Source: Candidatus Scalindua sp. (GTDB taxonomy: Bacteria; Planctomycetota; Brocadiia; Brocadiales; Scalinduaceae). Taken from it: 32,000 nt of DNA. The notes below the pieces were generated by a model that did not search any database, was not told the DNA's origin, and saw only the letters and a list, made by a program, of their open reading frames with translations. Of the stretch, positions 6,001 to 32,000 are shown piece by piece. The DNA is taken from positions 30,001 to 62,000 of the forward strand of contig JALDRA010000002.1 in the NCBI GenBank assembly GCA_031316235.1, in the 5' to 3' direction. Numbering within the stretch: the first letter of the stretch is position 1; each line of letters opens with the position of its first letter. Made by a program: the position numbers and the translations under genes.

Positions 6001-8358
6001 GGATACCCCTTCATAGAGAAGAGACCTCTGACCCGTTTCCCCTTCAGGGACTATCACTCCAAGATCAAAGGAACCGCTTTGGATTCCCAGAATATCAATG
6101 GTATATTGTGTTGCATCCGGTACCGTCACAACTGCAAAGTTATCGTCTGCATCATCCAACTGGCTCATGGCATAGATTTCTGCAAAAGGAATTTCACGTC
6201 TGACCTCCTCATCTTCAGAGAGTATTCCCAGCCGTTTGCCCTCTGAGTCCGTGATCTGAATTCTCACCGGTGCAGGATCACTACCAGAATTCACTGCAAC
6301 AGAGAGGTGCGGGGATCTGTAACGCTCTGTCTCAGCAAGCCCATTCTGAAATGCGATGATGTCATTATTGGCCACATCCTTTACCATAAGCGCTGCGAAG
6401 GTATCCGCAACGATTGGACCTGGTGCTACTTCTCTCCTGAGTAAATCAAAGGCCTCAATGTCCCTTTTGCTCGCACCCGGTTCGGGCTCATTTATGCCTG
6501 CCCCGAGGTAGTCAAAGAGGAGGTCATGAATAACCAGCTTTTCACTATCCTTAAACTTGATACGCATACCTCCCCTTGCAAGATTGAGTGCCCTCTCAAA
6601 GACAATGTCCTTTGACATCCTGGTAATACCTGCCGGCAGAGAACCTCCGGGAGCGGTTGCCACACTGTACGCCTGTCCGAGGAGTCGCATCGCCGAACGG
6701 ATCAGTTCTTCCGGCAGGTGATCGGCCGTTTCCGGAATAATCAGTGTATCCGGTGAGAGTGGTATTCCATCCTCAGATACACCAACGGTCAGAACAAATC
6801 GACCGTTGATCCCCTCGTCAGAGAGAAATACCGTAGCACCGACCTCTCCGGTAATCTGTGATACCATTCTGAAGAGTACTGTTTCCGAGCTCCCCGCCTT
6901 GATCGTTTCAACATTTTTTACCTCCTCTTCCCCTTCGGCCAGAAGTGTACCGCTCAGGCTGTGCCTGTTGATACTCAGACTAACCAGATTGGCATCGGAT
7001 TTTGAGATATTTGACATGGTTACATATACCGTATACGGTTCATCCCTGCGTACGGTTCTGGGATGGGCAACTGTCATTGCAAATTTTGGATTTCTCACCA
7101 GTACGCTCCCCGGTACCGTCGTAGCGACATCGTAACTGTTTCCACTCCTGAAACCCTCGAGTTTCCCGGTAACATCGATATCAAATACGTGCGTGCCCTC
7201 TATCAAACCCTCAGGCAGAAATTCAGCCTGTCCCGTCTCCCCACCTCTGAGGGAATCTTTATCTTCTGAGACGATCTTTTCACCCGTAGCTGTTTCCGTA
7301 ATACGCAATATCGGCAGGATAGATTGTACTCCCCCCTGCTGCGTCTCTGCCAATCGCAGTGGATCATCACCTGTACCAGGAATCTGATCTTCTCCCGGTG
7401 GCAGCTTAAACGCAGACTTCAGATTACTTACCAGAAGTGATGAACCTTGAGGCGATGCATTACTTACCATAATGAGAACGCTAAAGAATTCGTTGAGAAA
7501 ACCCACATCTCCAGGAATAATAATGACACCCGGTATTGTGGCAGGCGGATCGTCTTTCTCGTCTTCCTGTGCAAGGGGAGGCGTCATGAGACCAAAACCT
7601 GCTACCATGAGGTTAGGAATCTCCAGACCGGGAACCTTCACCTCCTGTATCTGAGGAGCAAATTTTGGTATTTTAGGTTGCGGAATATCGATGGCCTGCA
7701 TCTTCTTTTCAGATGGAATGATAACGGGTATTTCAATCTTGACCGTTTTACTTTCTACGACGAAGCCTACGACAAACTCAAGCGCCGTAAAGTTGTCTTC
7801 TGTAATGATGATCCCTTTTTCCCTGATTTCATCAAGCGAGAGGGGGCGTGAGGTAACTTCCGTAACCAGGATCTCGTCAATTACGTTAATGACAATGGGT
7901 TCTGTGTCAGGCCCCTGCAGCCTCTCAAGGATCACACCGCCCTCCCTTTCCAGGCGAACGTTGGAGATGACGTAGTCACCTGAAACACGTAGCGCCGGTA
8001 TCTCCAGAAAGGTATTCGGCCTTGCAGACAAGGTTAGAGTTTTGTTACCCAGGCCGGGGCCATCCAGCTCAGCCACCACAAGGGAATCAGCCGGAATATT
8101 GGTAACTGTGTTACTTCCATCAGGGGAACCCACAACGGCAAGCACCGCAGAGGGGAAGTCCTTAACCGCCTTACGTGTCGACTGAATGCCATCGATATCG
8201 GGTCTGGTATCAACGTCCACGACAAGCCCCACAATCTTAATCTGTCCGCTGCCAATAGTCTCTGCCTGGGTTGAATTCACCGTAACAATAGACAGCACTG
8301 AATAAAGAGCAACCAGCACAATTGCTAAGATGGCAGCTTTTGATTGTTTGTCACACAT
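1..8358 (-). CDS. Giant secreted surface/adhesin-like protein. The 5' end is complete; the 3' end lies beyond the window (more than 2785 aa here). Order: signal peptide, unassigned ~950-aa N-terminal region, tandem CarboxypepD_reg-like modules, then Big_5-type and Big_7-like Ig modules.
   Basis: It is not in the ORF track because it has no stop inside the window. My translation of the minus strand from ATG 8358 begins MCDKQSKAAILAIVLVALYSVLSIVTVNSTQAETIGSGQIKIVGL..., a hydrophobic signal peptide. I met no stop through to position 1. I re-checked the frame codon by codon over 1-420 and found no tta/cta/tca starting at positions 1 mod 3. GGAGG lies 6 nt upstream of the ATG. The plus-strand ORFs listed here are S/T/P-rich antisense shadows. 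Modules of the form G.V.G.V.D..G.PV..A.V...TD..G.Y.F recur, and the C-terminal part has PP.V...P....G....V.A.D..GV modules. Confidence 0.8.
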   Translation of the reverse strand, partial: MCDKQSKAAILAIVLVALYSVLSIVTVNSTQAETIGSGQIKIVGLVVDVDTRPDIDGIQSTRKAVKDFPSAVLAVVGSPDGSNTVTNIPADSLVVAELDGPGLGNKTLTLSARPNTFLEIPALRVSGDYVISNVRLEREGGVILERLQGPDTEPIVINVIDEILVTEVTSRPLSLDEIREKGIIITEDNFTALEFVVGFVVESKTVKIEIPVIIPSEKKMQAIDIPQPKIPKFAPQIQEVKVPGLEIPNLMVAGFGLMTPPLAQEDEKDDPPATIPGVIIIPGDVGFLNEFFSVLIMVSNASPQGSSLLVSNLKSAFKLPPGEDQIPGTGDDPLRLAETQQGGVQSILPILRITETATGEKIVSEDKDSLRGGETGQAEFLPEGLIEGTHVFDIDVTGKLEGFRSGNSYDVATTVPGSVLVRNPKFAMTVAHPRTVRRDEPYTVYVTMSNISKSDANLVSLSINRHSLSGTLLAEGEEEVKNVETIKAGSSETVLFRMVSQITGEVGATVFLSDEGINGRFVLTVGVSEDGIPLSPDTLIIPETADHLPEELIRSAMRLLGQAYSVATAPGGSLPAGITRMSKDIVFERALNLARGGMRIKFKDSEKLVIHDLLFDYLGAGINEPEPGASKRDIEAFDLLRREVAPGPIVADTFAALMVKDVANNDIIAFQNGLAETERYRSPHLSVAVNSGSDPAPVRIQITDSEGKRLGILSEDEEVRREIPFAEIYAMSQLDDADDNFAVVTVPDATQYTIDILGIQSGSFDLGVIVPEGETGQRSLLYEGVSITEGIKGTLNINTTENNDFLLNLDTDGDGTPEEISPSRNRLIPDDGPALLVANHWGEGDYPWQPPKLKNGDPLGRMVVALFSEPVDKESAMDITNYRIDDDRIGIGSIGLQPGGRILMLFLDEPIRPPPAQAHNSPFIERTLTVSNMADLRGNTMDPLQQSFTILPDPEIGDGGVLSGTVRHADGSPVPFAIVNYIQPVCMFPVCPARPITSQIFANDRGEYSIDFVLKNALGPFTIEAQDPETGYTGRVRTSVQFDGQRFILDVIIPGFGSVEGVVHDSNGGPVPGAIVNVNSLTTGLQHGGKGGAVADHNGYYRVDQIAVGNIGIVAHNPADGANGRAAGNIAAVGSTANVDVTVFATGRGSLRARVLSSDGEQVEGVAVVLRTGGKAIALQESDVTGQVNFEELTIGSYSLEAINLVTGEKTRVVAFVEENGVKDVNLVLPGVGGTVKGIIVDKDGKPVAGAQVIAGQFLTETDENGTFEITGLVVGNVEIKAGANSSKNTITVTLSSETDLQEVTLKLPPPADFVSVFGTVFKADRTTPVPNTPVYFIAGGLAITDTDEDGNYRFDDLPVQTPIKATVRSTRGTSDGGENRTTFSFDGETQRVDVIYRGTGSIKGRVIQAQGGTPVIADVKITKSVIKILEGGGGIGIASTEVRKVLEGTGFEDGELVRMPIFTSEEVEIKSDEFIQITGPDGKPAQELTGGFTLNNVLAGPFGVSTSNPFLGSVAVSSFIPKTPNPEERIIDVGDLVLETSTGSVEGFVFLPDGNTPVGENVSLTIKATGLPEFSVITDEDGHYEFPLVPKGAFTIRADTGVPLTRAQSGAEIITDGFDDLNVRLFGEVRGFIKSGGDQVDANLRLLDSGSIKVTVVENNGVDVVPFAKVTLSTTSLLDQDEFVNFNTDDQGEIELFPVIEGDFTVKANNPNTAAVGLASNTIPEDPSNGFRLPVKVQLGAVSDRQTVDEVLGFGTVAGTIFRQAGISLTTPAEVLLVVKNRTSLNTISDTRGNFTFESIPVNAPFKIQVFEPFTARRGSNIGQLTADGQTEVVEILLEGLGTVVGTVSSFDGIPQSGATVRLRPAGNFSGDIITQTDVNGSFSFPGVPRGVFTVTATSNSPINILTGAVTGNISFDEEVVRADVFLEAAGVVQGTVYENNSQDPVKNAIVTLKRGNDKKSEQTDDDGFYRFSSVAAGDFTLTARPPIGNDGGIQHVTLSLDKIISGEAEKVDIIFEGTGEVKGRIVDSQGLNAVNNALVTLSSLSPFLKLPVIRSVEDSEGRFSFTIPTGDFRIGVVTTVQEPPLGTSFNGTVQANKVLDLGDVRLEESGLIKGCVVRADGVNAAPNAVIILTKAGRSALRLTTETDVNGCFEFRAIPLGDSDIALLDPVSTGQNSAQVTINQNGQIVDLGTITLDDDSPRVVSITPTDGESDVSPGTSVVVTLSEPVDPDTVNDKTFKVSTAAGEITGTIQTSTSPPAITFTPAKPIPALRLVTVSVVSEKVGFNGNITPGVKDMVGFTLLEDFESHFTINDSTPPETLSLSPQDTAVQVPIESVIRVKFDEAIDRDSIRSFTLNDGSSDIDGKLNTLPILNDTVIVFVPASRLEPNKTYTVTIQGPVKDRAANPQPQEITTWSFRTIDTIGPDINSLTSLGGTSIFVGEKTRITADPGDADDVAYVDFFVNGEHYKKVETRPYEIELVLTNRLGAEIRIEAKAVDTAGNISKGLTIVLNANPNLPPDIVITQPLDHSNVATGQQVNVVVRASDDVGVREVAYSATGAATANEVEVLEAPLITVDHTFHFTVPDTAAPGATINLRVSAKDTLQQNSQTVTRQLIVTDGAPPVVTVSNPLSGTLVDPGDTIVIQVMAEDRGKVSTIHADVSSGGTPIGSFTKDNIRTSKASTSFTFQIPNNASAGNNLIISAHAVDEDGNRGNSPPVVMVVRDNAAPVVSRLNTQNGLTSVGIGEGLDIVVDATDNVGIKRITLSSDKGTIVPETRDFATGNPS
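1780..5490 (-). other. Tandem array of at least 13 carboxypeptidase-regulatory-like beta-sandwich modules inside the giant CDS (approximate bounds)
   Basis: My translation gives successive units, for example GSVEGVVHDSNGGPVPGAIVNVNSL...DHNGYYRVDQIAVGNIGIVA, GTVKGIIVDKDGKPVAGAQVIAGQFLTETDENGTFEITGLVVGNVEIKA, GTVVGTVSSFDGIPQSGATVRLRP...TDVNGSFSFPGVPRGVFTVTA and GVVQGTVYENNSQDPVKNAIVTLKRG...TDDDGFYRFSSVAAGDFTLTA. Assignment to the family is from motif memory. Confidence 0.6.
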
Positions 8359-9097: not shown

Positions 9098-9119
9098 GCC
9101 CCATAAATGAGGCAACTAC
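9098..9119 (-). repeat. REP abutting and overlapping the RAYT stop codon
   Basis: The minus strand reads GTAGTTGCCTCATTTATGGGGC. The TAG of the GTAG head (9116..9118) is the RAYT stop codon. Confidence 0.8.
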
Positions 9120-19600: not shown

Positions 19601-22187
19601 ACTTCAACCGATGATGTGGATAAAAGATAATCGTTTTATCCCGGTTTTCAAACTCGATACGCCCCTCAACCGGACTATCGTTTTCATCCTCATTGTACAA
19701 TTTAAAATGAGAGTTCAAGGGGTCAGAATTATCGAATATTGTACAGGGAAGCATCGGTTCGATAAACTTAACGGTAATGGTGGCATCAATATCAACATCG
19801 CTCGCACCCATATCAGGAGATTGAAATGTGACTGTTGGAGGCTCACCATCCCCAATCGTTGAAACAGGTACGCAAAATGTTACCGGATTTCCCGGTGGAA
19901 CGGGTGGAAGGTTTACCGATGTTATTATGCGTCCTTGCTGATTGAGAAATGTTACCAGGAGAGGCTTGTTTACCGGGACGACAGCGATAACAGGGCCGGA
20001 TCTCACCGGGTAGGAGAAATCTGGAAAGGCATCTATAACTGCCGTCCATATATTCTGGTCAGCAGCGCCCGCAAGGATCACTGCATTTAACCCAGCTAAG
20101 GCTGGATCAGTTGCAAGTAAAAATGCTATGCGTGCACTATCTCTTACCCCTGGGTATGGTGGTGAGGTAGTCGTAATTCGATCACCATCCAAAGCTGCAA
20201 TATTGATGGGATTCAGTTTCAGTTCGCCTGCCACATCGATCGTTTTGGCAACGATTATTTGACCATCCGCCGGTATATTTGATAGCGCGGGAACGGAAAC
20301 TTTAAGTTCTTTAGCGGCTGTGACATCACCTATATCGAGATCAACACCTCCAACGTAAGCAAAACCTGCCGGCATTGCAACGGGATAATCCTCTTCCGAA
20401 ATAAATTTGTACTTTACAACCGTCCCGTCCGGTATTGCTCCCGTGGGGATGGTAATGCCAACGCCATCATCCCCAGTAATTGCCCCACCGCTTGAACCCA
20501 TAACCGTTACCGGATCACCATTTTCATCTACAAAGGGAACATCTACCAGATTTGTACGGTTGCCCGCCTGGTCCTGTACCGTAACCAGCAGCTCATTACC
20601 CAGCGTCACCCCGATAGCTACGGTAAAGCTTCCGTTTGCATTTGCTGCCTTAGTTGATGTTTCACCAGTATTGACATTTGTCACAATGATGATATCATCC
20701 GGTTCAACGGTACCCTGTGTGCCCGTTAACTGTGATTTGCCGTTAGCTGGAAGGCTGAAACTGACCTGGCCTGCAACCGTTACCGTGGGAGGAGTATTGT
20801 CTGCAGTTGTAAATGAACTCGCAAACGATTCGAGTTTGTTGCCGCTGAAATCCAGGATCTCCTCCGCCAGGTTGACCGTATAAACAGTTTCTGAATCCAA
20901 CTGGTCTGATGGAACAAAGGTGGCAACTGTGCCTCCAGAATTAAGCGTTATATTCCCCTTGACATTTCCGCTGCTATTCTCAAGCGTAAGAGTGTTTGTC
21001 CCGATAATAGTCGATGGATCAATCTTTTCCGAAAAGGTTACGTGTATGGAAGTAAATAGAGATACTCCCTTTTTATCTGCCTCAGGAGTGATACTGAGTA
21101 CTCTTGGGTGAGTAACGACAAGATTAATATTAACGATTGCCAGATCACCCTTTGAGGACAAATCCCCATTGCCACTCCCCTCATCACCGTTAAGAGAGTT
21201 AATGGCGGCTACATTAAATGGTTTTATCAATGACGGTATTACATAAGTACCCTCGGTATTCGATCTCGAAACAATTGGGTTATTATCTATAGTGATAATG
21301 GCAGTAAGATCACGGTTACCAGCGGCATCTGTAACGTTACCGGTAACAAATCCAAGTGGATTTACGCTCTTGAGAAAGAGATAATATCCTTCTGTAATCA
21401 CTCCAAGTGAAGGTCGAGTATGAAAGTCTGTTACCAGGGTATTATCAATTGCAGAGGCAGTACCAACAAAAAGGAGTTTCGTCGAATCAGATATTTCAAC
21501 CATCTTCGTGAGGAGAATTTGATCTTCGCTTGTAATGCCTCCTGTCAAAGGAAGAGTGATTCGTGCTGATCGAGACAATTTCGCACCATGCATGGTAAGT
21601 GAAACTGCATCGATAAAAGCGAAACCGTCTGATATTGAAACTGCCAGGTTTTCCAGGCCAATCCTGTTTATCTCAACTGGAGTGTTCTCCGTTAAAGCTC
21701 CAGATGGTATAACAAGGCGCATACCATGAGACCCAATAACTGTGCTACCGCTTCGCCCAACCAAGACGCCAGAAGGTTGTCCAAAATCATGAGGAAAACT
21801 GATATCGATATCGATCACACCTGTCTTGAATTCTGCGAAGGAGAAGAAACGGGTCGGTGAAACAATGAATTTGGATGATAAGGTGTCAGGATCTTCATTG
21901 CTAGGTTTACTGTACAGAAAGAGATCCTGAGTATACGGTTCCGTGATGATACTGCTCCCGTCCATGAGTTTGAAATGTTCACTTACCCGGGATTGGATTA
22001 CCGTTCCGCTCGGAACGGAAGAGCCAGAGGTGACGCTGGTTGTCACATCGGCACGTGAATCCGGTTGTGTAAGAAGTATTGGCGGCTCAGGTGTAACCTT
22101 TGCAGTGGCTTGAGGAATAGTAACGGGATTCACGCCCTGAAGCGGTTCTCCCTCTACCGGTGAAATTGTATTTGCCTTATCCGGCAT
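10665..22187 (-). CDS. RHS/YD-repeat polymorphic toxin, 3840 aa. It contains CarboxypepD_reg-like, Big_5-type Ig and LVIVD-like propeller modules, a YD shell, an RHS core and a variable C-terminal toxin domain.
   Basis: The shell-entry motif is DIMIPGRGLSLDFTRTYSS...GPLGAGWTHSY. Dozens of YD repeats follow (for example Y.YD..GNL, TYTYD..NR). The RHS core reads DAWGRIR...YTGHYKDKETCLHYFGARYYDEETGRFLSQDPY...NPLRYVDLTGY. There is no signal peptide and no PAAR, VgrG or LXG-like N-terminus. Confidence 0.9.
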   Translation of the reverse strand: MPDKANTISPVEGEPLQGVNPVTIPQATAKVTPEPPILLTQPDSRADVTTSVTSGSSVPSGTVIQSRVSEHFKLMDGSSIITEPYTQDLFLYSKPSNEDPDTLSSKFIVSPTRFFSFAEFKTGVIDIDISFPHDFGQPSGVLVGRSGSTVIGSHGMRLVIPSGALTENTPVEINRIGLENLAVSISDGFAFIDAVSLTMHGAKLSRSARITLPLTGGITSEDQILLTKMVEISDSTKLLFVGTASAIDNTLVTDFHTRPSLGVITEGYYLFLKSVNPLGFVTGNVTDAAGNRDLTAIITIDNNPIVSRSNTEGTYVIPSLIKPFNVAAINSLNGDEGSGNGDLSSKGDLAIVNINLVVTHPRVLSITPEADKKGVSLFTSIHVTFSEKIDPSTIIGTNTLTLENSSGNVKGNITLNSGGTVATFVPSDQLDSETVYTVNLAEEILDFSGNKLESFASSFTTADNTPPTVTVAGQVSFSLPANGKSQLTGTQGTVEPDDIIIVTNVNTGETSTKAANANGSFTVAIGVTLGNELLVTVQDQAGNRTNLVDVPFVDENGDPVTVMGSSGGAITGDDGVGITIPTGAIPDGTVVKYKFISEEDYPVAMPAGFAYVGGVDLDIGDVTAAKELKVSVPALSNIPADGQIIVAKTIDVAGELKLNPINIAALDGDRITTTSPPYPGVRDSARIAFLLATDPALAGLNAVILAGAADQNIWTAVIDAFPDFSYPVRSGPVIAVVPVNKPLLVTFLNQQGRIITSVNLPPVPPGNPVTFCVPVSTIGDGEPPTVTFQSPDMGASDVDIDATITVKFIEPMLPCTIFDNSDPLNSHFKLYNEDENDSPVEGRIEFENRDKTIIFYPHHRLKYGTSYRFELKGAQDVSTEILPDLVSNFKTFEPSVIGLLPFTPAEKNDGERAIGIDYIDNTCTVLLTNGPYGFVDNLTGFRVINVGRPNAPVLLGDEVVTAGRAMDIVTHTDSFAGRIAVVVSGNNRVFGNLRIFDVNKPENTAQLRYQGERVRGVPDEDETLYLGFRKLSTPFNLTPPLHVPEDPGVPIAAALAGDQVAYVATVPIGIQAVDLMATTNWLYTPFADRGPQPRIEGLYRGKFSDVDFIRAQRPNSPEGTVLAVGSLSSGRGFGLTVLDANLEHPDEVLNDPPTKSASRVKGLANFTISIDPDGDGIPEDKRYDLAFVAGGILGGLHVISLNEVCSSNSAAPCELGFIPTTHEGVTVPAFDITIDGPGNLVYVSSGSDPAILIFDISRMFDSDGDFVEGQQTCDGENCIDKDQDGDDDRILGSVSIPEGEANESVYDAKRGLLYLASGPGGLSVIRVGRRSALFDPDQAVVIEGEKISSANGVTLDKDVLVFNRPYGSDSFCINLDTKLSGDDRLNYEIVEQPLNNPDGAPGAAILSPNNMQGVLTEGNQEICLTIDSSPFDDFFGSQIILRVLDQQGLCTAELSFEIKPARIDGPDILTIATKVDRINGETCFGAGRFIFTQTVDAKVTLEINGRVAVDVKDEDLNPIGGTGKFEEIFFEAGTHSVILFSDTLPPGENRYILKAKEIPGYRDEIDDEGIILHEIEVNATLPIGHTMIKGVDIWDGHLTHSTQDIMIPGRGLSLDFTRTYSSAGYASDGPLGAGWTHSYNIRLIKDSCGRYVVIGGEGSGNAFRSPHSDTRRATDFGLPANDVEFFKPQIGYHSALVRYPNNLAKGLDFYTKAHIRYHFELDPNQSFMPLQELYILRFIEEPNGNKIRLFYDERPPLGDNDPTTLDQVTDASDRSLLFEYEIEVSGQKIAYTDIYLKKRIRKITGSDPLTGSDLDLELTYEYDIHGNLVTVRRKTPNPGLGYDDERVERYTYWHSPAQASHSKPTVQIPTTVHPSQLHNLKSYTDPNGKQTNYVYGQPQPVVTLTNIETLFGVPSHERVEFVNQPEGVTTGFTYSFSGKTRVVTDPRPNVSPTTYTLNDYGATVTIVAPMSKRTKMEWCTDAPHQSCNGGIDVLMVSKTDAEGRRTEYVYDDLGNLEIETIKFTGNKKDVMNTAGGVENEVVTRSTYDKNFSKMIEKTDAEGNKTFYHIDSNTYSGQTFSCTGGRGNTGNLLGVKDAESNITCYTYDTITGSEGNLLTVKDPRGKVTKYTKYDRYGNPEMIEAPDGLNTTTNRYDERSRLKDTSDNPFGHHVAYTYDGLDRTIRESRFEDSGETGTSEVTEYRYYANDELKQVIDGLGQITEYPILDGLNRVKVKKELGVAQVTGNTEYTTSYTYDEDSNVVTEEDQRGIKREHTYDELNRRTETKIVSGGGVVGRTNVIMNYTYDLVNNKLSEIDHHGHETKYFYDGLYRVVETHLPHTHVFSDIPFPLAAKIEIRYDLVGNKVSETDANGQKMTYGYDDIYRLLSMKDADQNKITYRYDRASNKIREENKSSGLVTTWDSSYDGLNRPTAFTQTGPGILPTTGYKTSYTYDDSDNAVTVHNPRGINVRTDKDGLDRVFETIVDPGGLNLITTYSYDGNGNVISVNDPKRNETILLYDGLNRKIRSTYAAAAASTVAGPMDPDQNQNSPTEEFTYDGNNNLTRYKDKRGIVFRNTYDYLDRLLKKIVEESVTGGGTDLTLMEYVYNDSSTPYTINETDANGNVTEKRYDGIHRLTTIDDPDPITDTNDPDGRALVTFEYDGVNKRAETDKKGHRTEYDYDEINRLVKTREYNSGGGLKTAPDALMVTYDDANNRVEETDRRTIKTTRQLDALQRLRELKRTGPDMATHYPLATNNEVLLETYEYDENSNKTLFIDGEGNKTRYTYDAADRLVTMTEGLGSTKVESDTNYTYDKVNNILTVKDGRVHGSTFDIKYDYDDRYRKISETNGEKETTQYKYDGNDNLVSMEEPKGGQEFTTLYRYDELNTLLAVDETQRGGGVTRFFYDDNRNKIEQRDAEENRVTYSYDRLNRLTDTFQHIGGTNTLRWQYGYDLNSNLSLIVDPKGQRVEMVEYDWLDRLVTKDYKDHDPSETGLDFQMQKCEYVYDGNSNITSITETKQIGGVRDKREVTTQTFDPLNRLQTSTHIDYDNTTKEIQYDYDKQGNRTKVIDPDGLITDYKYDERNRLDTVTTEFGLPTEGLTKYTWWEDSLLKKVEYPNGTVCDRESADSYDAADRLMKTINRPADPSLPIFSVYSYTYDENSNRWTQVETQRVLHGGNSEKTIYDYDNLNRLRMVTYNDGGNPQILTYTYERNGNRKSEIGTDPHTGQPVDRLYTYEELPGMAGVTFDGVNTLTQIVDNLDSSKSVTYEYDRNLNQTAKEKGGVRTEFKYGIRDHILEADELSGDTVTFDYDHDRMRVKKISGGTGKETRYLYDQSSVLVEYDGTDPDRSTSHKYDYGYELLSLTTFDDVNLTRDSQFYMKDGLMSTANLTDERGGLLHSYRYDAWGRIRDQVGTSTNPRQYTGHYKDKETCLHYFGARYYDEETGRFLSQDPYLGEENTPPSLHRYLYAYANPLRYVDLTGYQAEGVPMFTDKDIARYNAAAKAKPYTVMSQVIHHEDVMPELANTVIENENSEGVETVPLDLDGDLPSGMPDLLWKILKKMGPLQGDPLSHLGDAISKLGSLRDDYARNAARSSRNLLFDVAYGNETPENAASRAVFRRRMIERNIRDATGKISQKTADLMGKRNLSEYGDKLGPKDTSHPKFKGKSPIEIIESAGKTNKTINALGKVAQYGGKVLSVAGKGLAIFGTAKAGFQIGTGIDELISGENTVKGAADLGFGSAKLGVEIAATSMAGAGSLAAAGTGALAAGGLWLAEESVNAANEGRETPLEIAEKHYFGESGTALYGSGNFWKITKAAFGEEITTVKNAANWINPFSSKK
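10668..11738 (-). other. C-terminal variable (toxin) domain of the RHS protein, 357 aa, family unassigned. It contains a Gly/Ala-zipper hydrophobic segment.
   Basis: It begins directly after ...ANPLRYVDLTGY. The sequence QAEGVPMFTDKDIARYN... leads into GKVAQYGGKVLSVAGKGLAIFGTAKAGFQIGTG...GFGSAKLGVEIAATSMAGAGSLAAAGTGALAAGGLWLAEE and ends ...NWINPFSSKK*. Confidence 0.7.
11739..17417 (-). other. YD-repeat shell plus RHS core region (approximate N-terminal bound)
   Basis: It runs from VDIWDGHLTHSTQDIMIPGRGLSLDF (aa ~1591) to VDLTGY (aa 3483). Confidence 0.75.
18200..19452 (-). other. LVIVD-like beta-propeller region of the RHS protein (approximate bounds)
   Basis: Blade-like motifs recur: GFRVINVGRPNAP, LRIFDVNKPEN, GIQAVDL, GLTVLDANLEHP, GLHVISL, ILIFDISR and GLSVIRVG. 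There is also an Asp-rich Ca-binding-like loop, CIDKDQDGDDD. The family call is from motif memory. Confidence 0.5.
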
Positions 22188-22301
22188 AAGCAGTACAACC
22201 TGTCCTGACTTTGAGACGCTGAGCTGAATCTGTAAACCATCCTGGGTAACAGTAGCTGTGGTATGAGTTATCCAGTTGTTATTATTCTCATTCCATATGG
22301 C

Positions 22302-25301
22302 CTAAACAATCTGGTTACCAGCTGAAAGGCCATAGTTATTGGGTACCAGAAGTTTAGCCGGTTGTTGAAAGATTACCTCATCAGGGGTAATCTCAACCGA
22401 AACAAGAGGTGTCCAGCCAAGGGGTAATCGACCCCGTAATCCTTGTCCGCTAATGGAGGTAACTCTGATATCTTGATCACCTCCCAGGGCACCAGCTGCA
22501 AACTGAAGAGAGATAGTTTCATCTTCACTGGTGGCAGTACCTCCGAGTGCGCTATTAATTTGGTTTTGTTTCTCATCTACGGGAGTAAGCCTTGCGTCGA
22601 GAACAGTGGTACTCAACCCTTCTCTTACCTCCGTGGATCGATACACCTTTGTAAAACCTTCTTTATTAATCATGAGATGTACCACGGTGGCATCCATCTC
22701 AATAGAATATCTTCCATGCTTGTCTGTATTCACAGAACTGTGATCTTCACCGATTATAGAGACATTCGCTCCCTCCAGAAAGAGACCTGTGGAGTCGTCA
22801 TAAACCTCACCTGTTAAAAATCCGTTTCCTAATCTCGTGAGGCGAGAAGTAACTTCGATCATAGCAGTCTTTGTGGAAACATTGTTTGAAAAATCTGTAG
22901 CTTCTACGCGTATTGAAACAATTGTACCAAGTTCTGCATCCAGTGGTATTGTTACCGTTGTTTCAAAAGGTTGAGCGGTATCACTGATTACCTGTGACCC
23001 ATCCGCATAAAAAGAGACAGAGGAGACACCAACATCATCAGTAGCTTTGACATTTATTGAAACAGTTTCTCCCGGAAGAGCTCTATCCGGTAAAGTTATT
23101 TCTATTCCAGGAGCTGTGTTATCCTCTGCAGCAACCACATTGAGTGTCTTGGATGCTATCGCAGTAAGACCTTCAAAATCAGTGGCAGTCGCTGACACCT
23201 TTAAGCTGGATCCTACGGTGATATTGTTCGGTAGTGAAAATACCGCTTCAAAAGGTGCCTGAGATATTGTGATTGAGTCGGAAATTACCGAATCCATCTC
23301 AATACTGAACAATACCAAGGATACTCCACTGTTATCAATCGCTTCCGCAGATAGTCTGAGTTTCGCACCCGGAAAGGTTTCTGATGGTGCATTCAGGTCG
23401 ACTGTAGGAGGTTCAGTATCAGGAGTGGCAACTACTTCCACCATTACGGTAGAATCTCCTGAATTCCCCTCAGCATCTACAGCGGTAGCCTTAATGGTAA
23501 TATCCTCCCCTACTTGTGCATCTGAGGGGACCGTAAAGAGATGGTTGATTTCAAAAGGCTCATCATTGTCAGATAGTGTTCGAGTTCCAACATTAAGATT
23601 CAGAAGTCTCACCTCAACATTATCTTGAGCAGTTGCAGTTATAAAAAACGTCTTTCCTGCTTCAGAATGCATTGGTGTATTTATGGTTACTTTTGGTGGA
23701 ATGTTATCTATTATGGTTATTGTTGTAGATACAACAGAATTTAGATTTGCAAAGTCTTGTGCCGTAGCAGTTAGATTAATGGTATCGCCAGGAGTTTTGT
23801 CAGTTGAAACCGTGTAATTTGTTTCATAGGGGGCAGTTGTGTCCGCAAAACTAAAACCGTCTCCATCTGAAAAAGTGACAGATACGATACCACTTTTATC
23901 CATTGCTTCGGCTTCGAAGGATATAATTGTGTCGGGTAGTGCCTCCAAGGGTGCTTTTACAAACTTGACAGTTGGAGGTATAGTGTCAGGGACAGGCACG
24001 ACCGTAATTGTCAACATATCCAAACCCGGATTACCTGAAACATCTGTTGCCGAAGCGGTAAATACAAAGGTCTCACCTTCGGCAGCATCAGAGGGAACCG
24101 TAAATGTTTGATCAATGGTAAAGGGTTCTGAAGAAACACTCCTAATAAGGTTGTCATCTTGTTTCAGAGTAAACAGGGCAACCCTTTTATTGTCCTGTGC
24201 TGTTGCCTGGAGTCTAACTATGCTGCCAGGCGTTGCCGTTAAAGGAGCTATGAGTTCGACTGTTGGTGAGATGATATCTCGATCACCTTCAACTTTAATA
24301 ACCTTTTTCTCTTGTGCAATGTTACCAGCTTTATCCGTCACTTTTGCTGTGATCTCAAGTTGTGAACCTTCAGTGGCAGTGACAGGTACTGAAAAAGGGA
24401 ATTCGAACGGTGGTAGAGTGTCAATATCAATGAGAGAACCATCCATAAAGAGGATGACATCAGCAATACCAGATTCGTCATTTGCGATAACTGAAGCGGT
24501 AACAGAACCTCCGGGTGGTGCAGTCTCTAAGGGAAGATTTAGTTCCATTGTGGGTAATATTGTATCGAGGGTAACTTGTACCTCTGGACTCGTTCCAGTA
24601 CCAGCGGTGTTTTGAGCTGAAACGCTTAGGGTATTAACACCTTCTTTCAGGTTAATGGACGTGCTAAATCTTCCGTTGTTAACGGTAATGGTAAGATCTG
24701 ATCCATTTAAACGTAATATAGCTGAAGTAAGAGTCTGATCACTAATTGTGCCACTAACCGTTTGCTCAACACTATTCGTTACTAACCCATTGAGAGGCTG
24801 GGTAATGGTTATAGAAGGAGAAGAAATAGTAGCCAACCTACCAAATATATTAAAGAATGAACTAAATGGTGATAGCTCTTTCAGACAAATAATGATATGA
24901 ACAAAAACAAATTCACCTGGAGCGAATTCTCCATCAGCATAGCCATCTCTCAATGAAACAATTAATCGAGACCCTACCCCTCCTGCCCCCCCTTGAGCAT
25001 TTTGCAGTAAATTCCCATTAGATAATTGCACAACCTCAACTTCAAGGTCTGTATATGTGCTGCGGCTTGTGTTAACAAGCTTTGCGTCGAAGCTAAATTG
25101 TCCGGCAAATCCATCCGGACAACCAGAGGCATCTGGAGTTGACCTGAATGTTGATCTTATCGGTTCAAAATTAACCCGACTGTTTATATTCGACGTAACA
25201 GACGTTTGCGCTATTCCACTTGAGGAGATGCTTAGCTGTAATACTGCAAACACAAGCAATAAATAGGCTAACAGCGGAAAAGTTGTTATGCGTTTGTTCA
25301 T
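22302..25301 (-). CDS. Secreted Ig-repeat protein, 999 aa: signal peptide, unknown ~140-aa domain, 1 Ig-like module, 6 Big_7-like modules, CarboxypepD_reg, and the first half of a domain that continues past the TAG. Probably the N-terminal part of the RHS gene.
   Basis: The signal peptide is MNKRITTFPLLAYLLLVFAVLQLSISSSGIAQ. There are six ~95-aa repeats of the form (I/E)PPTV.L.AP....PG....L.A.A.D..GV..V.F......I..D...PFE..F.VP......G......A.A.D..GN. The CarboxypepD_reg module reads GFLTGEVYDDSTGLFLEGANVSIIGED..NTDKHGRYSIE. The TAG stop is in frame with the RHS ORF. Confidence 0.85.
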   Translation of the reverse strand: MNKRITTFPLLAYLLLVFAVLQLSISSSGIAQTSVTSNINSRVNFEPIRSTFRSTPDASGCPDGFAGQFSFDAKLVNTSRSTYTDLEVEVVQLSNGNLLQNAQGGAGGVGSRLIVSLRDGYADGEFAPGEFVFVHIIICLKELSPFSSFFNIFGRLATISSPSITITQPLNGLVTNSVEQTVSGTISDQTLTSAILRLNGSDLTITVNNGRFSTSINLKEGVNTLSVSAQNTAGTGTSPEVQVTLDTILPTMELNLPLETAPPGGSVTASVIANDESGIADVILFMDGSLIDIDTLPPFEFPFSVPVTATEGSQLEITAKVTDKAGNIAQEKKVIKVEGDRDIISPTVELIAPLTATPGSIVRLQATAQDNKRVALFTLKQDDNLIRSVSSEPFTIDQTFTVPSDAAEGETFVFTASATDVSGNPGLDMLTITVVPVPDTIPPTVKFVKAPLEALPDTIISFEAEAMDKSGIVSVTFSDGDGFSFADTTAPYETNYTVSTDKTPGDTINLTATAQDFANLNSVVSTTITIIDNIPPKVTINTPMHSEAGKTFFITATAQDNVEVRLLNLNVGTRTLSDNDEPFEINHLFTVPSDAQVGEDITIKATAVDAEGNSGDSTVMVEVVATPDTEPPTVDLNAPSETFPGAKLRLSAEAIDNSGVSLVLFSIEMDSVISDSITISQAPFEAVFSLPNNITVGSSLKVSATATDFEGLTAIASKTLNVVAAEDNTAPGIEITLPDRALPGETVSINVKATDDVGVSSVSFYADGSQVISDTAQPFETTVTIPLDAELGTIVSIRVEATDFSNNVSTKTAMIEVTSRLTRLGNGFLTGEVYDDSTGLFLEGANVSIIGEDHSSVNTDKHGRYSIEMDATVVHLMINKEGFTKVYRSTEVREGLSTTVLDARLTPVDEKQNQINSALGGTATSEDETISLQFAAGALGGDQDIRVTSISGQGLRGRLPLGWTPLVSVEITPDEVIFQQPAKLLVPNNYGLSAGNQIV

Positions 25302-26250: not shown

Positions 26251-26323
<73 letters not shown>

Positions 26324-27774: not shown

Positions 27775-28021
27775 TATAAGAAATGAAGCAAACAGTCAGC
27801 AAGGTTGACATTACCTGTTCAGTGTTCATCCGGCCGGATGAAATAGTTGATCTGTTCCCACGGTGGACGAAGTTTGTTGGAGGCATCAGGATACCCCCGG
27901 GATGATATACCCTTAACAAGGCTTTCACCCTGATAATTCGCGCTTCAGATGGTTCTTTGCCCGGATATACAGTACCGGGAGGCATAGAGTCATTCACTGA
28001 CTGCATGGGTGTTCTTAATTT

Positions 28022-28486
28022 TTACTCGTTGTCTCTTTTTTTACAAGTTTGCCAGAGAAAAAAATAGTACCTGAAACTTGAAATGAGAAGTGCACCACCT
28101 ATCGTTGTATACAAAATAGAGAGGTAGTGTTTCGGAATGGGAGAATGACGCAGAAAAATGCCCAGTGTAATCATTACAGAAATAAGCAGATAACTCTTCC
28201 ATGCCTGAAACGCAAAGATACATCTTTTGCCGTTGCTTAAACAGATGCGATCAATATTCTTCTGAGCAACGTAGGTAAATCCAAAACGGAAAAGGATACA
28301 GGCCAGGGCAATACCGATCAAACCATGTACCAGTGCAACCCGCCAGTGAACTAATTCAAGCCAGGTAAATGACAACCGGCAAAGCATCATTCCAATCATG
28401 CTCCAGGTTGCACCTGCCAGGCCAAGAAGCCACTTTTCAGAAACGGCTGGTTTCAGTCTTGTTATTAACACACTCTTACTTCTCAT
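28022..28486 (-). CDS. Small integral membrane protein (154 aa, about 4 TM helices), function unknown
   Basis: Hydrophobic segments are WLLGLAGATWSMIGMMLCRL, VALVHGLIGIALACILFRFGF, SYLLISVMITLGIFL and LSILYTTIGGALLISSFRYYFFLW. Confidence 0.65.
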   Translation of the reverse strand: MRSKSVLITRLKPAVSEKWLLGLAGATWSMIGMMLCRLSFTWLELVHWRVALVHGLIGIALACILFRFGFTYVAQKNIDRICLSNGKRCIFAFQAWKSYLLISVMITLGIFLRHSPIPKHYLSILYTTIGGALLISSFRYYFFLWQTCKKRDNE

Positions 28487-28942
28487 AATTCCGGGATATT
28501 CGAGTTATCACACTGCCTGTTACTATCTTAAAAACAGACAACATTGTCAAGGAAAATGTCTTTATTGTCTTCATGTGATACTCTCACCGGGACATAAAAA
28601 AATTTTCTCTTTTGTCTTGACACATTTTCTATTTTTGCCTTGAATACCAACGTTCATTGTTTTAGAATAAAAAACTTAAAGCAGGCAGTAACGTGTTGTT
28701 TATTGTGACATCTCCCTTTGAACTATTTCCCCTTTAGCTCAATATTCTCAATACCTTCCTGTTAAGTATATCTCGGTTAAGGTCTTTAGTAGTATCAAAT
28801 AACTCAATTTAAAAGATATTCTCTTCAGTTCCGCGCTGGAAAGTAAATCTCCTTGTTGTTGGTCTCATTCGACGGAAATGCATTGCGATTTGATGAAGGC
28901 ATTGTTCTTAATGAGAAAAGAGAAGCAGGCGGAAGCCAGAAA

Positions 28943-29707
28943 ATGATAATTGACCAAATCCTTGTGAACAAATTAGAAGAAATCGAAGACCCGGGAGAAC
29001 TGATGGCAGAGTTGTTCCGGCAGTTTGGTATCCGTGCCGCAATTGGTACCAGCGGACAATGGTCGGGAGTAGCCCTGATTGACATGGTGATCCGCACCGG
29101 GATCCCCGCACCAAATGTCTACACGGTAGACACCTTGCGTCTTTTTCCAGAAACCTATGATCTTATGCGTGAATTGGAGAAGCGATACAGGATTAAGATT
29201 AAAAAGGCTGTACCTGATTTTAACGCGGTAACCAAGATGGTTCGTGATCATGGAGAGATGATCTTTTTCAACAGCAAGGCCAAACAGGAGTATTGCTGTA
29301 AAATCCGTAAGGTTGACCCGAATAACAGGATTCTTGACACCCTGGATGTCTGGATTACGGGCATACGGGCAGACCAGTCAAACAGCAGATCTGAAATGAA
29401 ACGGTTAGATATTATAACGCACAGGCAGAATGACGGTACAGAGAGGCCTTTACTCAAGGTTACACCCTTGATTGAATGGACGGAAGAGGAGGTCAAGGAT
29501 TATGTGAAGAAACATAATGTACCGGCACACAAATTACTTGAGATTGAACGGGACGGATGGCATTACGCCTCACTTGGATGCATTATCTGTACGACTCCCA
29601 TCGGTCCTCATGAAACCCGACGGGCTGGACGCTGGAGATGGTTTAACTATGCCCTCAGCGATGATCATAAAGAGTGCGGCCTGCACCTCCCGAAAAAATG
29701 TGAATAG
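28943..29707 (+). CDS. cysH: Adenylylsulfate/phosphoadenylylsulfate reductase (CysH family, Fe-S cluster type)
   Basis: Family motifs are EYCCKIRKVDP, WITGIRADQSNSR, LGCIICT and the C-terminal KECGLH. The CC...CxxC cysteines are typical of the 4Fe-4S APS-reductase subgroup. I prefer ATG 28943 (MIIDQILVNK...) over the track's TTG 28853. Confidence 0.8.
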   Translation: MIIDQILVNKLEEIEDPGELMAELFRQFGIRAAIGTSGQWSGVALIDMVIRTGIPAPNVYTVDTLRLFPETYDLMRELEKRYRIKIKKAVPDFNAVTKMVRDHGEMIFFNSKAKQEYCCKIRKVDPNNRILDTLDVWITGIRADQSNSRSEMKRLDIITHRQNDGTERPLLKVTPLIEWTEEEVKDYVKKHNVPAHKLLEIERDGWHYASLGCIICTTPIGPHETRRAGRWRWFNYALSDDHKECGLHLPKKCE

Positions 29708-29736
29708 GAATGGTACGGTTCACATACCATTTTTTA
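29708..29736 (+). terminator. Intrinsic terminator after the cysH-like gene
   Basis: The stem-loop is GAATGGTA-CGGTTCACA-TACCATT, followed by a T-run (TTTTTAT). Confidence 0.55.
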
Positions 29737-29764
29737 TACGAAAACCAAAATGGATATTTTCTGA

Positions 29765-31090
29765 TTATTGATTTGAGTCTCTGTTTTTCGGTCTGAAGTA
29801 AAATTGCAGAGGTATTTCATGAAAAGGAAGTGTCTTACGCAGCTGGTTAGAGAGATAACGTTCATAATCTGCATTAAAGAAAGATTTATCGTTAACGAAT
29901 AAAACGAACGTTGGCGGGCAGACGTTTACCTGTGTGCTGTAGTAAATCTTTGCCACCTTACTCTTTTTCCTGGTTGGACGATGGAGGAGAAACGCATGTT
30001 CAATTGCTTTGTTCAATTCAGCAGTCGATATCCGGGTATTTGCCTGTTCAAAGAGTTCCTGGGCCAGGGCAATGGTCTCGATTACGTTAGATCCATTTAT
30101 CGCACTCATAAAAGACAAAGGGGAAAAAGACAATCCAGGCAGACGCGCCTGAACATACTTGGTAAACGTACTCGTCTCAACCTGCCCTGCAAGGTCCCAT
30201 TTGTTAATAACCAGAATACAGGGTTTGAATTGTGTTTTAATATAATCACCAATTTTCTTATCCACCTGGGAAATCTTCCGTGGCGCATCTATCAGCAATA
30301 TTACAACATCAGCACGGCGAATAGACCTCTCTACCCTCGCCATGCTGTAAAATTCAATGGAACCCTGGATCTGTTTCTTCTTTCTGACTCCGGCGGTATC
30401 GATTGCAATAAAAGGCTTTCCCTTAATCTCAAATTTTACATCAATCGAATCACGGGTGGTTCCGAGCGTCTCGCTGACAATCACCCTCTCTTCATGAGCA
30501 AGAGTGTTTATCAAGGTAGACTTTCCGGCATTTCTTTTCCCTACTATCGCAATCTTCATTAAGGGTTTTACGGCACTCACATTCGATGCTGCATCAGGGA
30601 AGGTTGCAACTATTTTATCCAGGAGATCTGTTTTACCGTGTCCCTCAACTGCAGAAATTGTTAATGATTCTCCCATCCCGAGCTTATAAAAAACACCCGC
30701 CTGAAGATCAAATTTTGGTGTATCGCACTTATTAACAACAAGAAGCAGTGGTTTTTTTATCCTTCTAAGTCTTCCTGCAATCTCAACATCCAGTGGTGTG
30801 ACTCCTTCACGAACATCAACAACAAAAAGAATAAGATCCGCTTTCTGAAGCGCCAGCTCAATCTGCGTTTCGATCTCGTATGTCAGATCATCTACGTCAT
30901 TAACACCGATACCGCCAGTATCAACGAGCTCAAACATTTTTCCATCATGCTCGATTTCTACAGAAACTCTATCTCTCGTAACACCGCTCACAGAATCAAC
31001 TATTGAAATCCGTTTTTTTGCCAGGCAGTTCAGGAGTGAAGATTTCCCTACATTCGGTCTACCAATAATAGTTACGGTTGGGAAAAGCAT
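29765..31090 (-). CDS. der: Ribosome-associated GTPase Der (EngA), with two GTPase domains and a KH-like C-terminus
   Basis: Domain 1 has GRPNVGKSS, DTGG and NKCD. Domain 2 has GKRNAGKST, DTAG and NKWD. The product is 441 aa. Confidence 0.92.
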   Translation of the reverse strand: MLFPTVTIIGRPNVGKSSLLNCLAKKRISIVDSVSGVTRDRVSVEIEHDGKMFELVDTGGIGVNDVDDLTYEIETQIELALQKADLILFVVDVREGVTPLDVEIAGRLRRIKKPLLLVVNKCDTPKFDLQAGVFYKLGMGESLTISAVEGHGKTDLLDKIVATFPDAASNVSAVKPLMKIAIVGKRNAGKSTLINTLAHEERVIVSETLGTTRDSIDVKFEIKGKPFIAIDTAGVRKKKQIQGSIEFYSMARVERSIRRADVVILLIDAPRKISQVDKKIGDYIKTQFKPCILVINKWDLAGQVETSTFTKYVQARLPGLSFSPLSFMSAINGSNVIETIALAQELFEQANTRISTAELNKAIEHAFLLHRPTRKKSKVAKIYYSTQVNVCPPTFVLFVNDKSFFNADYERYLSNQLRKTLPFHEIPLQFYFRPKNRDSNQ

Positions 31091-31281
31091 TGTTTACCAT
31101 TCTCATGAAGTTAAGGCTCATAAATCAGGAACTACAGCTTACCGTCACTGAAGTTGACCAATTTATCGGGGTTGATAAAATTGCAAGGTTTCGTTCAGCT
31201 ATATGGTGCTTGCACGAAAACCCTGTGTTTGAACGAAAACTATATACATAATACAGAAATCCAGGAAAACAAGAGAATATC

Positions 31282-32000
31282 TCAAAAGTTTTTTTGCTCA
31301 TTCCGGGATGGTTCAACAGGCGATGGTGTATCAGACTCTCCGGAAAATCCATTCTGAGAATGCCCTTGTTCGCTTGCCGTTTCTTCTCCTGTTTTCTTAT
31401 CGATTAATGCCCTGTGATTTATTCCCCCTGCTGACTCCTCATAATATACATCACCTGTTTCTGTACCATCGACATCCTTCCTTAAAATGAAGTAAGCAAT
31501 GGTACTGGCCGTTCCGGCAAAGACAACCACAAAACTTCCAACAACTGCCTTAACCAGCGTTAAATAGATAATCAGCATAAACGTGAAGAATTTCAATGAC
31601 CACGTAACGGATCCTGCCATTCCGCCTCTCACCTGAATGGCAGGATCCGCGTTCCCTGAAACCAGAGCCCGTATAGAATCAAATTTCTGCCCCATCCCGA
31701 ATCCTACCGTAGTGAATGAAGTCTGCATGATGAGACATGAAATGCCATTTAAAAAAAATGTAAAGAATACTCCGCAAAAAATAATACAGAGAAACAGAGA
31801 AACAAAATGTTTTGGCCTTGCAAGCACATAACTATACGACCTGCTCATTGCATCAAAACAATCAGAACCTTCAGCGCTTATTGTCGGAAACATAAGAAAA
31901 AAACCAATCAACCCGACAATCCCGATAAAGACAATGAGAACACCTGAAATAATTGCCAGGGGAAACCCCAGAGCAGCAGCAATTTCACCGACATATTTTG
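31282..32000 (-). CDS. Multi-pass membrane protein with an acidic, disordered C-terminal tail. The 5' end lies beyond the window.
   Basis: The frame stays open upstream of the track's TTG 31911 to the window edge (...KYVGEIAAALGFPLAIISGVLIVFIGIVG-LIGFFLMFP...). It has several hydrophobic helices. I recognise no family. Confidence 0.6.
   Translation of the reverse strand, partial: KYVGEIAAALGFPLAIISGVLIVFIGIVGLIGFFLMFPTISAEGSDCFDAMSRSYSYVLARPKHFVSLFLCIIFCGVFFTFFLNGISCLIMQTSFTTVGFGMGQKFDSIRALVSGNADPAIQVRGGMAGSVTWSLKFFTFMLIIYLTLVKAVVGSFVVVFAGTASTIAYFILRKDVDGTETGDVYYEESAGGINHRALIDKKTGEETASEQGHSQNGFSGESDTPSPVEPSRNEQKNF

Follow-up and report, generated by a model that had tools for sequence, protein, structure and literature searches.

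Two long open reading frames in one frame, separated by a single TAG

The DNA analysed here, called the window, is a stretch of 32,000 nucleotides (nt) from Candidatus Scalindua sp. (contig JALDRA010000002.1 of assembly GCA_031316235.1), and our subject is a TAG codon on its minus strand, which lies between two long open reading frames (ORFs) that appear to be the two parts of one giant RHS-type toxin gene. The upstream frame, ORF A (25301..22305, minus strand), encodes 999 amino acids (aa) and is closed by the TAG at 22304..22302. The downstream frame, ORF B (10665..22187, minus strand), extends from an ATG at 22187 to a TAA at 10667..10665 and encodes 3,840 aa. The two ORFs are in the same frame, and the distance between the TAG and the ATG amounts to 114 nt, i.e., 38 sense codons (22188..22301, minus strand). 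When the TAG (22302..22304, minus strand) is taken as sense, one open frame of 4,878 codons is obtained, in which codon 1000, the TAG itself, is the sole internal stop. The peptide encoded across this site in the fused frame is LLVPNNYGLSAGNQIV-X-AIWNENNNNWITHTTATVTQDGLQIQLSVSK, where X stands for codon 1000. The initial annotation of the window, which was based on the letters and an ORF list, had reported that the TAG and the ATG share a frame with 38 sense codons and no further stop between them, and had quoted the readthrough peptide. The former was confirmed from the sequence and the ORF listing, and the latter matches the translation exactly.

Domain architecture of the fused protein

ORF A starts with a signal peptide, MNKRITTFPLLAYLLLVFAVLQLSISSSGIAQ, which covers approximately residues 1-31 (25301..25209; judged by eye from the sequence). 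Its Pfam content consists of a Glucodextran_B/Big_13 domain, five Big_7 immunoglobulin (Ig)-like domains and a CarboxypepD_reg-like (TTR-like) domain at residues 829-898 (22608..22817, minus strand), and its C-terminus corresponds to the N-terminal two thirds of the first of three ZU5-like domains. This first ZU5-like beta-sandwich occupies fused residues ~915-1042 (22176..22559, minus strand) and holds both the TAG (residue 1000) and the ATG (M1039; 22185..22187, minus strand) that had been called as the start of ORF B. The second and third copies, each with a weak Pfam ZU5 match, are found within ORF B at fused residues ~1176-1312 (21366..21776, minus strand) and ~1596-1730 (20112..20516, minus strand), and the two Big_5 domains and one Big_6 domain of ORF B are arranged between them.

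ORF B further contains a propeller-like region, homologous to that of LVIVD-containing relatives, and a DUF6531 plug at fused residues 2629-2700 (17202..17417, minus strand; PF20148, E 1.6e-13). RHS repeats (PF05593, E 2.3e-61) and YD repeats (TIGR01643, E 3.1e-51) are likewise present, and an RHS-associated core is located at fused residues 4441-4520 (11742..11981, minus strand; TIGR03696, E 7.1e-20, 71.3 bits at a cutoff of 32.5). The core is followed by a C-terminal tip of 358 aa (10668..11741, minus strand) with no Pfam or NCBIfam match. The protein shows three features of an RHS/YD polymorphic toxin: a YD/RHS shell, an RHS-associated core that precedes a variable tip, and an N-terminal DUF6531 plug. 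Directly after the RHS gene lies a small ORF of 178 codons (10114..10647, minus strand), which would yield 152 aa from a GTG start at 10569. It has no match in Pfam or NCBIfam, and by its position it is a candidate immunity gene.

The signal peptide is present on ORF A alone; for it to serve the RHS part as well, codon 1000 would have to be decoded as sense. The initial annotation had stressed this arrangement together with the lack of PAAR, VgrG and LXG-type domains in the RHS ORF. This also held true: no PAAR, VgrG or LXG match was detected in ORF B by Pfam at E <= 0.01.

Two compositional features of the fused frame were also observed. The third-position GC content over 10668..25301 is 0.32 at the N-terminus, rises steadily until it reaches 0.58 where the RHS shell ends, and is back at 0.32 in the last ~375 codons, which form the C-terminal toxin tip; this drop would fit a swapped-in toxin cassette. 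In addition, the last ~100 aa of ORF B (10668..10970) are Gly/Ala-rich, hydrophobic and glycine-zipper-like, a composition that hints at a membrane-active toxin.

The TAG falls within a beta-strand of the first ZU5-like domain

The structure of the junction domain was assessed on a homologue. An AlphaFold (AF2) model was built for the homologous protein P0001 and not for the window protein itself, using a six-row alignment that included both window pieces; P0001 is 43% identical to the window protein in the junction domain. The model is confident over residues 31-255, and the predicted local distance difference test (pLDDT) values within the domain are 85-93. In this model the residue equivalent to the TAG, I212, is placed in the middle of a strand (209-216), which is followed by strands 221-230, 236-243 and 246-252, and the residue equivalent to the ATG, L251, is located in the last of these. 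When aligned on P0001, the two window pieces abut, and exactly one column remains for the stop. These observations bear on the suggestion of the initial annotation that the two ends should be examined as one chain: according to the homologue model, the end of ORF A and the start of ORF B do not fold as separate complete domains.

Foldseek matched the modelled P0001 domain to the ankyrin ZU5 domain 3f59 with a template-modelling (TM) score of 0.66 and a root-mean-square deviation (rmsd) of 3.1. Over 3f59 and 3kbu, the target-normalised TM scores were in the range of 0.61-0.66, with rmsd values of 3.1-5.4 and E-values of 1.5e-5 to 3.8e-4. On this model, the junction domain has the ZU5 beta-sandwich fold. 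A sequence-profile search of solved structures gave a chance Kelch-like match only.

The initial annotation had proposed that a domain of ~120 aa interrupted by the TAG occurs twice more within the RHS ORF, and that the TAG aligns with the L or V of QILL/QIIV in those copies. The recurrence and the alignment are supported by hhalign, in which the junction-domain profile matched the two later copies in ORF B with E-values of 5.6e-5 and 9.3e-6 and the TAG was aligned to the second L of QILL in one copy and to the V of QIIV in the other. The length needs to be revised, as it is nearer 140 aa. The Pfam ZU5 profile scored 23.9 bits against the entire ORF B (cutoff 21), and 18.1 and 17.6 bits against copies 2 and 3 alone. 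The junction copy itself has no Pfam ZU5 match and is tied to copies 2 and 3 through hhalign.

The strands still missing from the first ZU5-like domain at the TAG are encoded by the 38 codons that precede the ATG. In the homologue alignments these codons carry an invariant Trp (W1010) and a near-invariant Gly (G1033) followed by a mostly conserved Gln. Judging from these alignments and the model, the 38 codons are a coding part of the domain and not a spacer. Among the invariant and near-invariant columns of the junction domain there is no His or Cys, so that autoproteolytic motifs of the HFS/SFS type or a C-terminal CxH were not found, and the lone aromatic-Ser pair of the alignment (G-W-S/T-P) sits mid-domain. 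Because no conserved His or Cys fits the motifs of the ZU5 superfamily, autopeptidase processing is not supported for the junction copy.

Homologues are continuous across the stop position

The homologues analysed comprised 29 sequences, 17 from a first alignment and 12 from further metagenome loci, with identities of 27-43%. None of the 29 has a stop at the TAG column; instead, L, V, A, I or F is found there, and the column of the ATG (M1039) is occupied by V, L, I or A. The alignment-based scan of reference genomes provided 16 loci (27-39% identity), all of which are continuous over the site, and in 13 of the 16 the site is embedded in a single ORF of 3,900-5,300 aa. For nine of these 13 loci the ORF starts were inspected, and they include signal-peptide-like hydrophobic stretches. 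In four loci (L010, L013, L017 and L018) the RHS part belongs to the same ORF as the junction site, and the RHS part of L013 shows 36% identity over 2,115 columns. The same continuity over the TAG site was seen in the 12 additional metagenome loci, and two distant database proteins found in the junction protein search continue through the site with I and V, respectively. A profile search of the protein database yielded two further fragments only, a single-protein scan of metagenome contigs found no relative, and an exact look-up of the 999-aa product showed that it is not on record.

The initial annotation had named two separate genes with a non-homologous spacer in orthologues as an observation that would speak against its view. 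The relatives, all of them distant (<=43% identity), are not arranged in this way, and the site reads as sense. Since 3,878 open codons are in phase with the upstream gene and homology spans the stop in 29 relatives, chance is ruled out as an explanation for the layout. The proposal that the ancestral unit was one 4,878-codon Sec-exported precursor, composed of an Ig array and an RHS part, is likewise upheld by the continuity of the homologues and by the single ZU5-like domain modelled across the site. Thus, both the sequence alignments and the model support the conclusion that ORF A and ORF B are one ancestral gene and that the TAG lies within a conserved domain.

Several relatives are broken in the linker that follows the ZU5-like domain, by short out-of-frame stretches or overlapping gene calls (L001, 3480..3600; L012, 10961..11200; L016, 10741..11805; L002, 1952..1998). 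In tblastn, L012 and L001 seemed to contain recurrent in-frame stops, but these turned out to be short out-of-frame stretches, i.e., frameshifts. The breaks in L001, L002, L012 and L016 are probably indel errors or genuine frameshifts and not in-frame stops.

Two of the relatives have a different C-terminal part. In L003 (6617..20467) and L006 (8498..20293) the same stalk is followed by a Peptidase_S8 subtilase and a TIG domain, which replace the RHS shell. The stalk common to these two loci, found in metagenome-assembled genomes (MAGs) of Sedimenticolaceae and Vicinamibacterales, is made up of the Ig array, the TTR-like and ZU5-like domains, Big_5 and the LVIVD propeller. These architectures indicate that the stalk is a module that can be reused for delivery or display.

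Expression signals and the usage of TAG

The only purine-rich tracts before the ATG at 22187 are AGGA at -20 and AGG at -14, both too distant to act as a Shine-Dalgarno sequence, as had already been noticed in the initial annotation. The neighbouring giant gene has GGAGG 6 nt ahead of its ATG. No promoter-like site was found upstream of the ATG at 22187, and no terminator after the TAG. When the RNA 3' of the TAG was folded and compared with shuffled controls, its minimum free energy was -30.4 kcal/mol vs a shuffle mean of -34.9 (z = +1.1), i.e., it is less stable than the shuffles, and no stimulatory RNA structure was apparent downstream of the TAG.

The conserved PAPS-reductase gene of the window ends in TAG, as does its counterpart in L019, one of the two nearest strains, whereas in the other, L020, a TGA is found at the same C-terminus. 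On this comparison, TAG is an ordinary stop in this lineage. A genome-wide reassignment of TAG was also considered and rejected: dropping TAG as a stop merges only ORF A and ORF B meaningfully, and TAG ends conserved genes. The tRNA scan of the 32,000-nt window detected tRNA-Ala(GGC) only. In the literature we found no link between Scalindua and pyrrolysine; the sole paper mentioning both concerns Rh50 permeases.

The genomic island and its surroundings

The tRNA-Ala(GGC) gene (26251..26323, minus strand) marks the point where synteny with related Scalindua contigs ends. On the far side from the giant genes, positions 28015..32000 of the window are syntenic with an ENA contig at 94-97.5% identity, and the neighbouring Der GTPase is 99% identical to the protein of the ENA contig and 91% identical to that of Candidatus Scalindua sp. 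AMX11. Where the window has the giant genes, L019 and L020 have small genes, among them toxin-antitoxin genes, or else genes that are unrelated. The GC content of the giant-gene cluster is 0.43-0.47, vs ~0.41 in the core. Because the related contigs have no giant gene at the corresponding position, the giant genes are, on the sequences compared, located on a strain-specific island, and tRNA-Ala(GGC) is its probable boundary.

The island contains a second giant ORF (1..8358, minus strand, ATG at 8358), of which >2,785 aa are encoded before the window ends. Its N-terminus resembles a signal peptide, its domains include CarboxypepD_reg (at least seven), Big_5 and Big_7, and its similarity to the first giant gene is of the Ig type only. 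Between the giant genes, in a region of low GC content (0.37), there is an ORF for an IS200-like Y1 transposase (9116..9535, minus strand; PF01797, E 6.6e-9). The ORF list gives the PAPS-reductase ORF (28853..29707, plus strand) 284 aa from a TTG start, and its orthologues in L019 and L020 are called at 254 aa; to judge from these, the true start is probably further downstream.

The nature of the TAG

On balance we favour, with moderate confidence, the view that the TAG is a real nonsense mutation that is either recent or still segregating. We take the base call to be real and the ancestral codon to have been one for Leu, and the functional consequences described below are likewise inferred. 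The gene would originally have been a single Sec-exported giant polymorphic toxin gene, encoding a signal peptide, the Ig-like array, the TTR-like domain and three ZU5-like domains interleaved with Big_5 and Big_6, then the propeller-like region, the DUF6531 plug, the RHS/YD shell with the RHS-associated core and the variable C-terminal toxin tip, and followed by the small candidate immunity ORF. By one point change, TAG would have replaced the codon of a buried hydrophobic residue that lies mid-strand in the beta-sandwich of the first ZU5-like domain. TTG (Leu) to TAG would be the most parsimonious change, because Leu is the only residue one substitution away from TAG that agrees with the homologue column. 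Translation would then end at residue 999, and the product would be a secreted Ig stalk that carries a disrupted ZU5-like domain and lacks the toxin, while the remaining 3,878 codons would stay untranslated or, at best, be weakly re-initiated at the accidental internal ATG. A re-initiated product would have no signal peptide and would not be exportable, and with no exported toxin the system would be inactivated. The mutation may still segregate in the population behind the assembly.

The homology in the same frame on either side of a stop that is absent from the relatives is what characterises a nonsense pseudogene. At the same time, no second lesion was found in the 3,878 codons (11.6 kb) downstream of the TAG. 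Under neutral drift, a second stop in ORF B would be expected after ~27-39 substitutions, which corresponds to a divergence of 0.23-0.34%, with indels uncounted. Since the downstream frame holds no second lesion, the TAG is either very recent or an error. Three observations weigh against the view that we favour. The intact 11.6 kb fit an error, or ongoing selection on a translated product, equally well. The nearest strains, L019 and L020, have no giant genes at the window position and so offer no allele for comparison. Moreover, no relative with an identity above 43% was found in the protein database or in the scans of reference-genome and metagenome contigs, and for this reason the ancestral codon is not directly observable.

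The initial annotation had left three possibilities for the TAG: a very recent nonsense mutation, a sequencing error, or a point of readthrough or suppression. Our results point to the recent nonsense mutation as the most likely one. An error in base calling, consensus or assembly, which would mean that the true genome has a sense codon (probably TTG) and an intact 4,878-codon gene, we consider unlikely, while granting it an appreciable chance. It would explain why the TAG is one base away from a codon fitting the homologue column and why no other lesion occurs in the downstream frame, and in other MAGs of this family the giant genes show visible damage, probably from assembly, in the out-of-frame stretches of L001, L012 and L016. 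However, the damage in those assemblies is of the indel type, whereas in the window the C7 and C8 homopolymers in the giant ORFs keep the frame and no frameshift occurs over ~23 kb of giant ORFs; besides, isolated substitution errors that happen to generate a stop are rare a priori. Nor is a systematic, motif-linked miscall pattern visible. A miscall at the methylation motif TGGCCA was considered and found no support, as TGGCCA and TTGGCC sites are present elsewhere in the window. Because the consensus looks accurate, it is more likely that this accessory gene of 14.6 kb acquired a true mutation than that a random substitution error occurred.

The other two explanations assume that the present arrangement is functional. 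If UAG were leaky, by programmed readthrough or by suppression, the cell would make mostly the secreted 999-aa stalk and a minority of full-length exported toxin, and the output would be throttled. This is the sole route by which the RHS part would obtain a signal peptide, and the fully intact downstream frame behind a single clean in-frame stop, free of frameshifts, would be in keeping with it. We nevertheless regard it as improbable, for the stop is conserved in none of the 29 relatives, distant as these are, and it interrupts a folded domain mid-strand, which would leave the short product with a disrupted domain at its end instead of a domain boundary. The downstream RNA being less structured than its shuffles, the ordinary use of TAG as a stop, the single tRNA-Ala in the window and the missing connection of Scalindua with pyrrolysine in the literature all argue in the same direction. 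Near-cognate decoding of UAG inserts Gln, Lys, Tyr or Trp, which would mostly place a poor residue in a hydrophobic column. The specific idea that the UAG is a genuine, maintained leaky stop, by which an anammox bacterium would throttle the translation of a giant and costly toxin, is in our opinion more doubtful still. Just as slim are the chances of a functional split into two genes, in which ORF A would be kept as a secreted Ig-array protein and ORF B separately re-initiated at the ATG at 22187. Bacterial ribosomes are able to restart after nonsense codons, ORF B is intact, and its ATG is 114 nt past the stop. Yet the residue encoded by this ATG is internal, not conserved and part of the domain's last strand, and residues 1001-1038, which form three strands, would be in neither product, so that the domain would not be rebuilt by complementation. 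A Shine-Dalgarno sequence and a promoter are lacking, ORF B has neither a signal peptide nor another export domain, and no relative is arranged as two genes.

ORF A and ORF B should be recorded as one interrupted gene, either as a pseudogene or as a candidate assembly error, and their annotation as an Ig-array protein and a leaderless RHS protein would be inappropriate. In this anammox strain of Scalindua, an island adjacent to tRNA-Ala carries a giant RHS toxin of the Sec type that has apparently just been knocked out, which offers one minor example of how costly competition genes turn over. The finding would be of much greater importance only if the stop were truly read through, and the evidence speaks against this.

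Comparison with known systems

Zhang, de Souza, Anantharaman, Iyer & Aravind (2012, PMC3482391) described Sec-dependent RHS/YD polymorphic toxins with a beta-propeller and N-terminal domains of the ZU5 superfamily; according to them, ZU5 domains are placed N-terminally in large RHS proteins and also occur in further surface proteins of large size. The window gene resembles the Sec-type RHS/YD toxins (PMC3482391) in its signal peptide, its adhesion-type Ig modules and the ZU5-like domains N-terminal to the RHS repeats, as well as in the propeller-like region, the RHS-associated core and the variable tip followed by a small ORF. It differs from them in being broken by a stop in the first ZU5-like domain, and in that its tip and immunity candidate match no described family in Pfam or NCBIfam. 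Unlike the autopeptidases of the ZU5 superfamily (PMC3482391), the junction copy is devoid of the conserved His/Cys of the autopeptidase motifs.

The RHS shell and core of the window protein are homologous to solved Rhs proteins of type VI secretion systems (T6SS; e.g., 8qja, 8h8b, 7q97 and Tse5 8cp6) with E-values of 1e-21 to 1e-15. In contrast to these, the window protein has no PAAR, VgrG or other T6SS adaptor, and its export would need the N-terminal Sec signal, which is located 1,000 codons upstream and is now severed by the TAG. Teneurin structures were among the Foldseek matches to the modelled P0001 segment containing the TTR-like and ZU5-like domains; the TTR-like domain presumably accounts for them.

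With the nonsense pseudogenes and split genes of bacterial genomes and MAGs, the locus shares a single point stop with in-frame homology on both sides, the lack of distal expression signals and its status as an accessory island gene with an insertion sequence (IS) element nearby. It departs from them in showing zero further decay over 11.6 kb, which would make it the first step of pseudogenisation, if it is real. The resemblance to stop-codon recoding, such as the use of UAG for pyrrolysine or leaky termination, is limited to the in-frame UAG between coding stretches, whereas the unconserved stop, the missing downstream element, the normal use of TAG as a stop and the mid-strand position set the locus apart. 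Thus, the TAG is most likely an ordinary point interruption of a known type of giant toxin gene and not a new translation mechanism.

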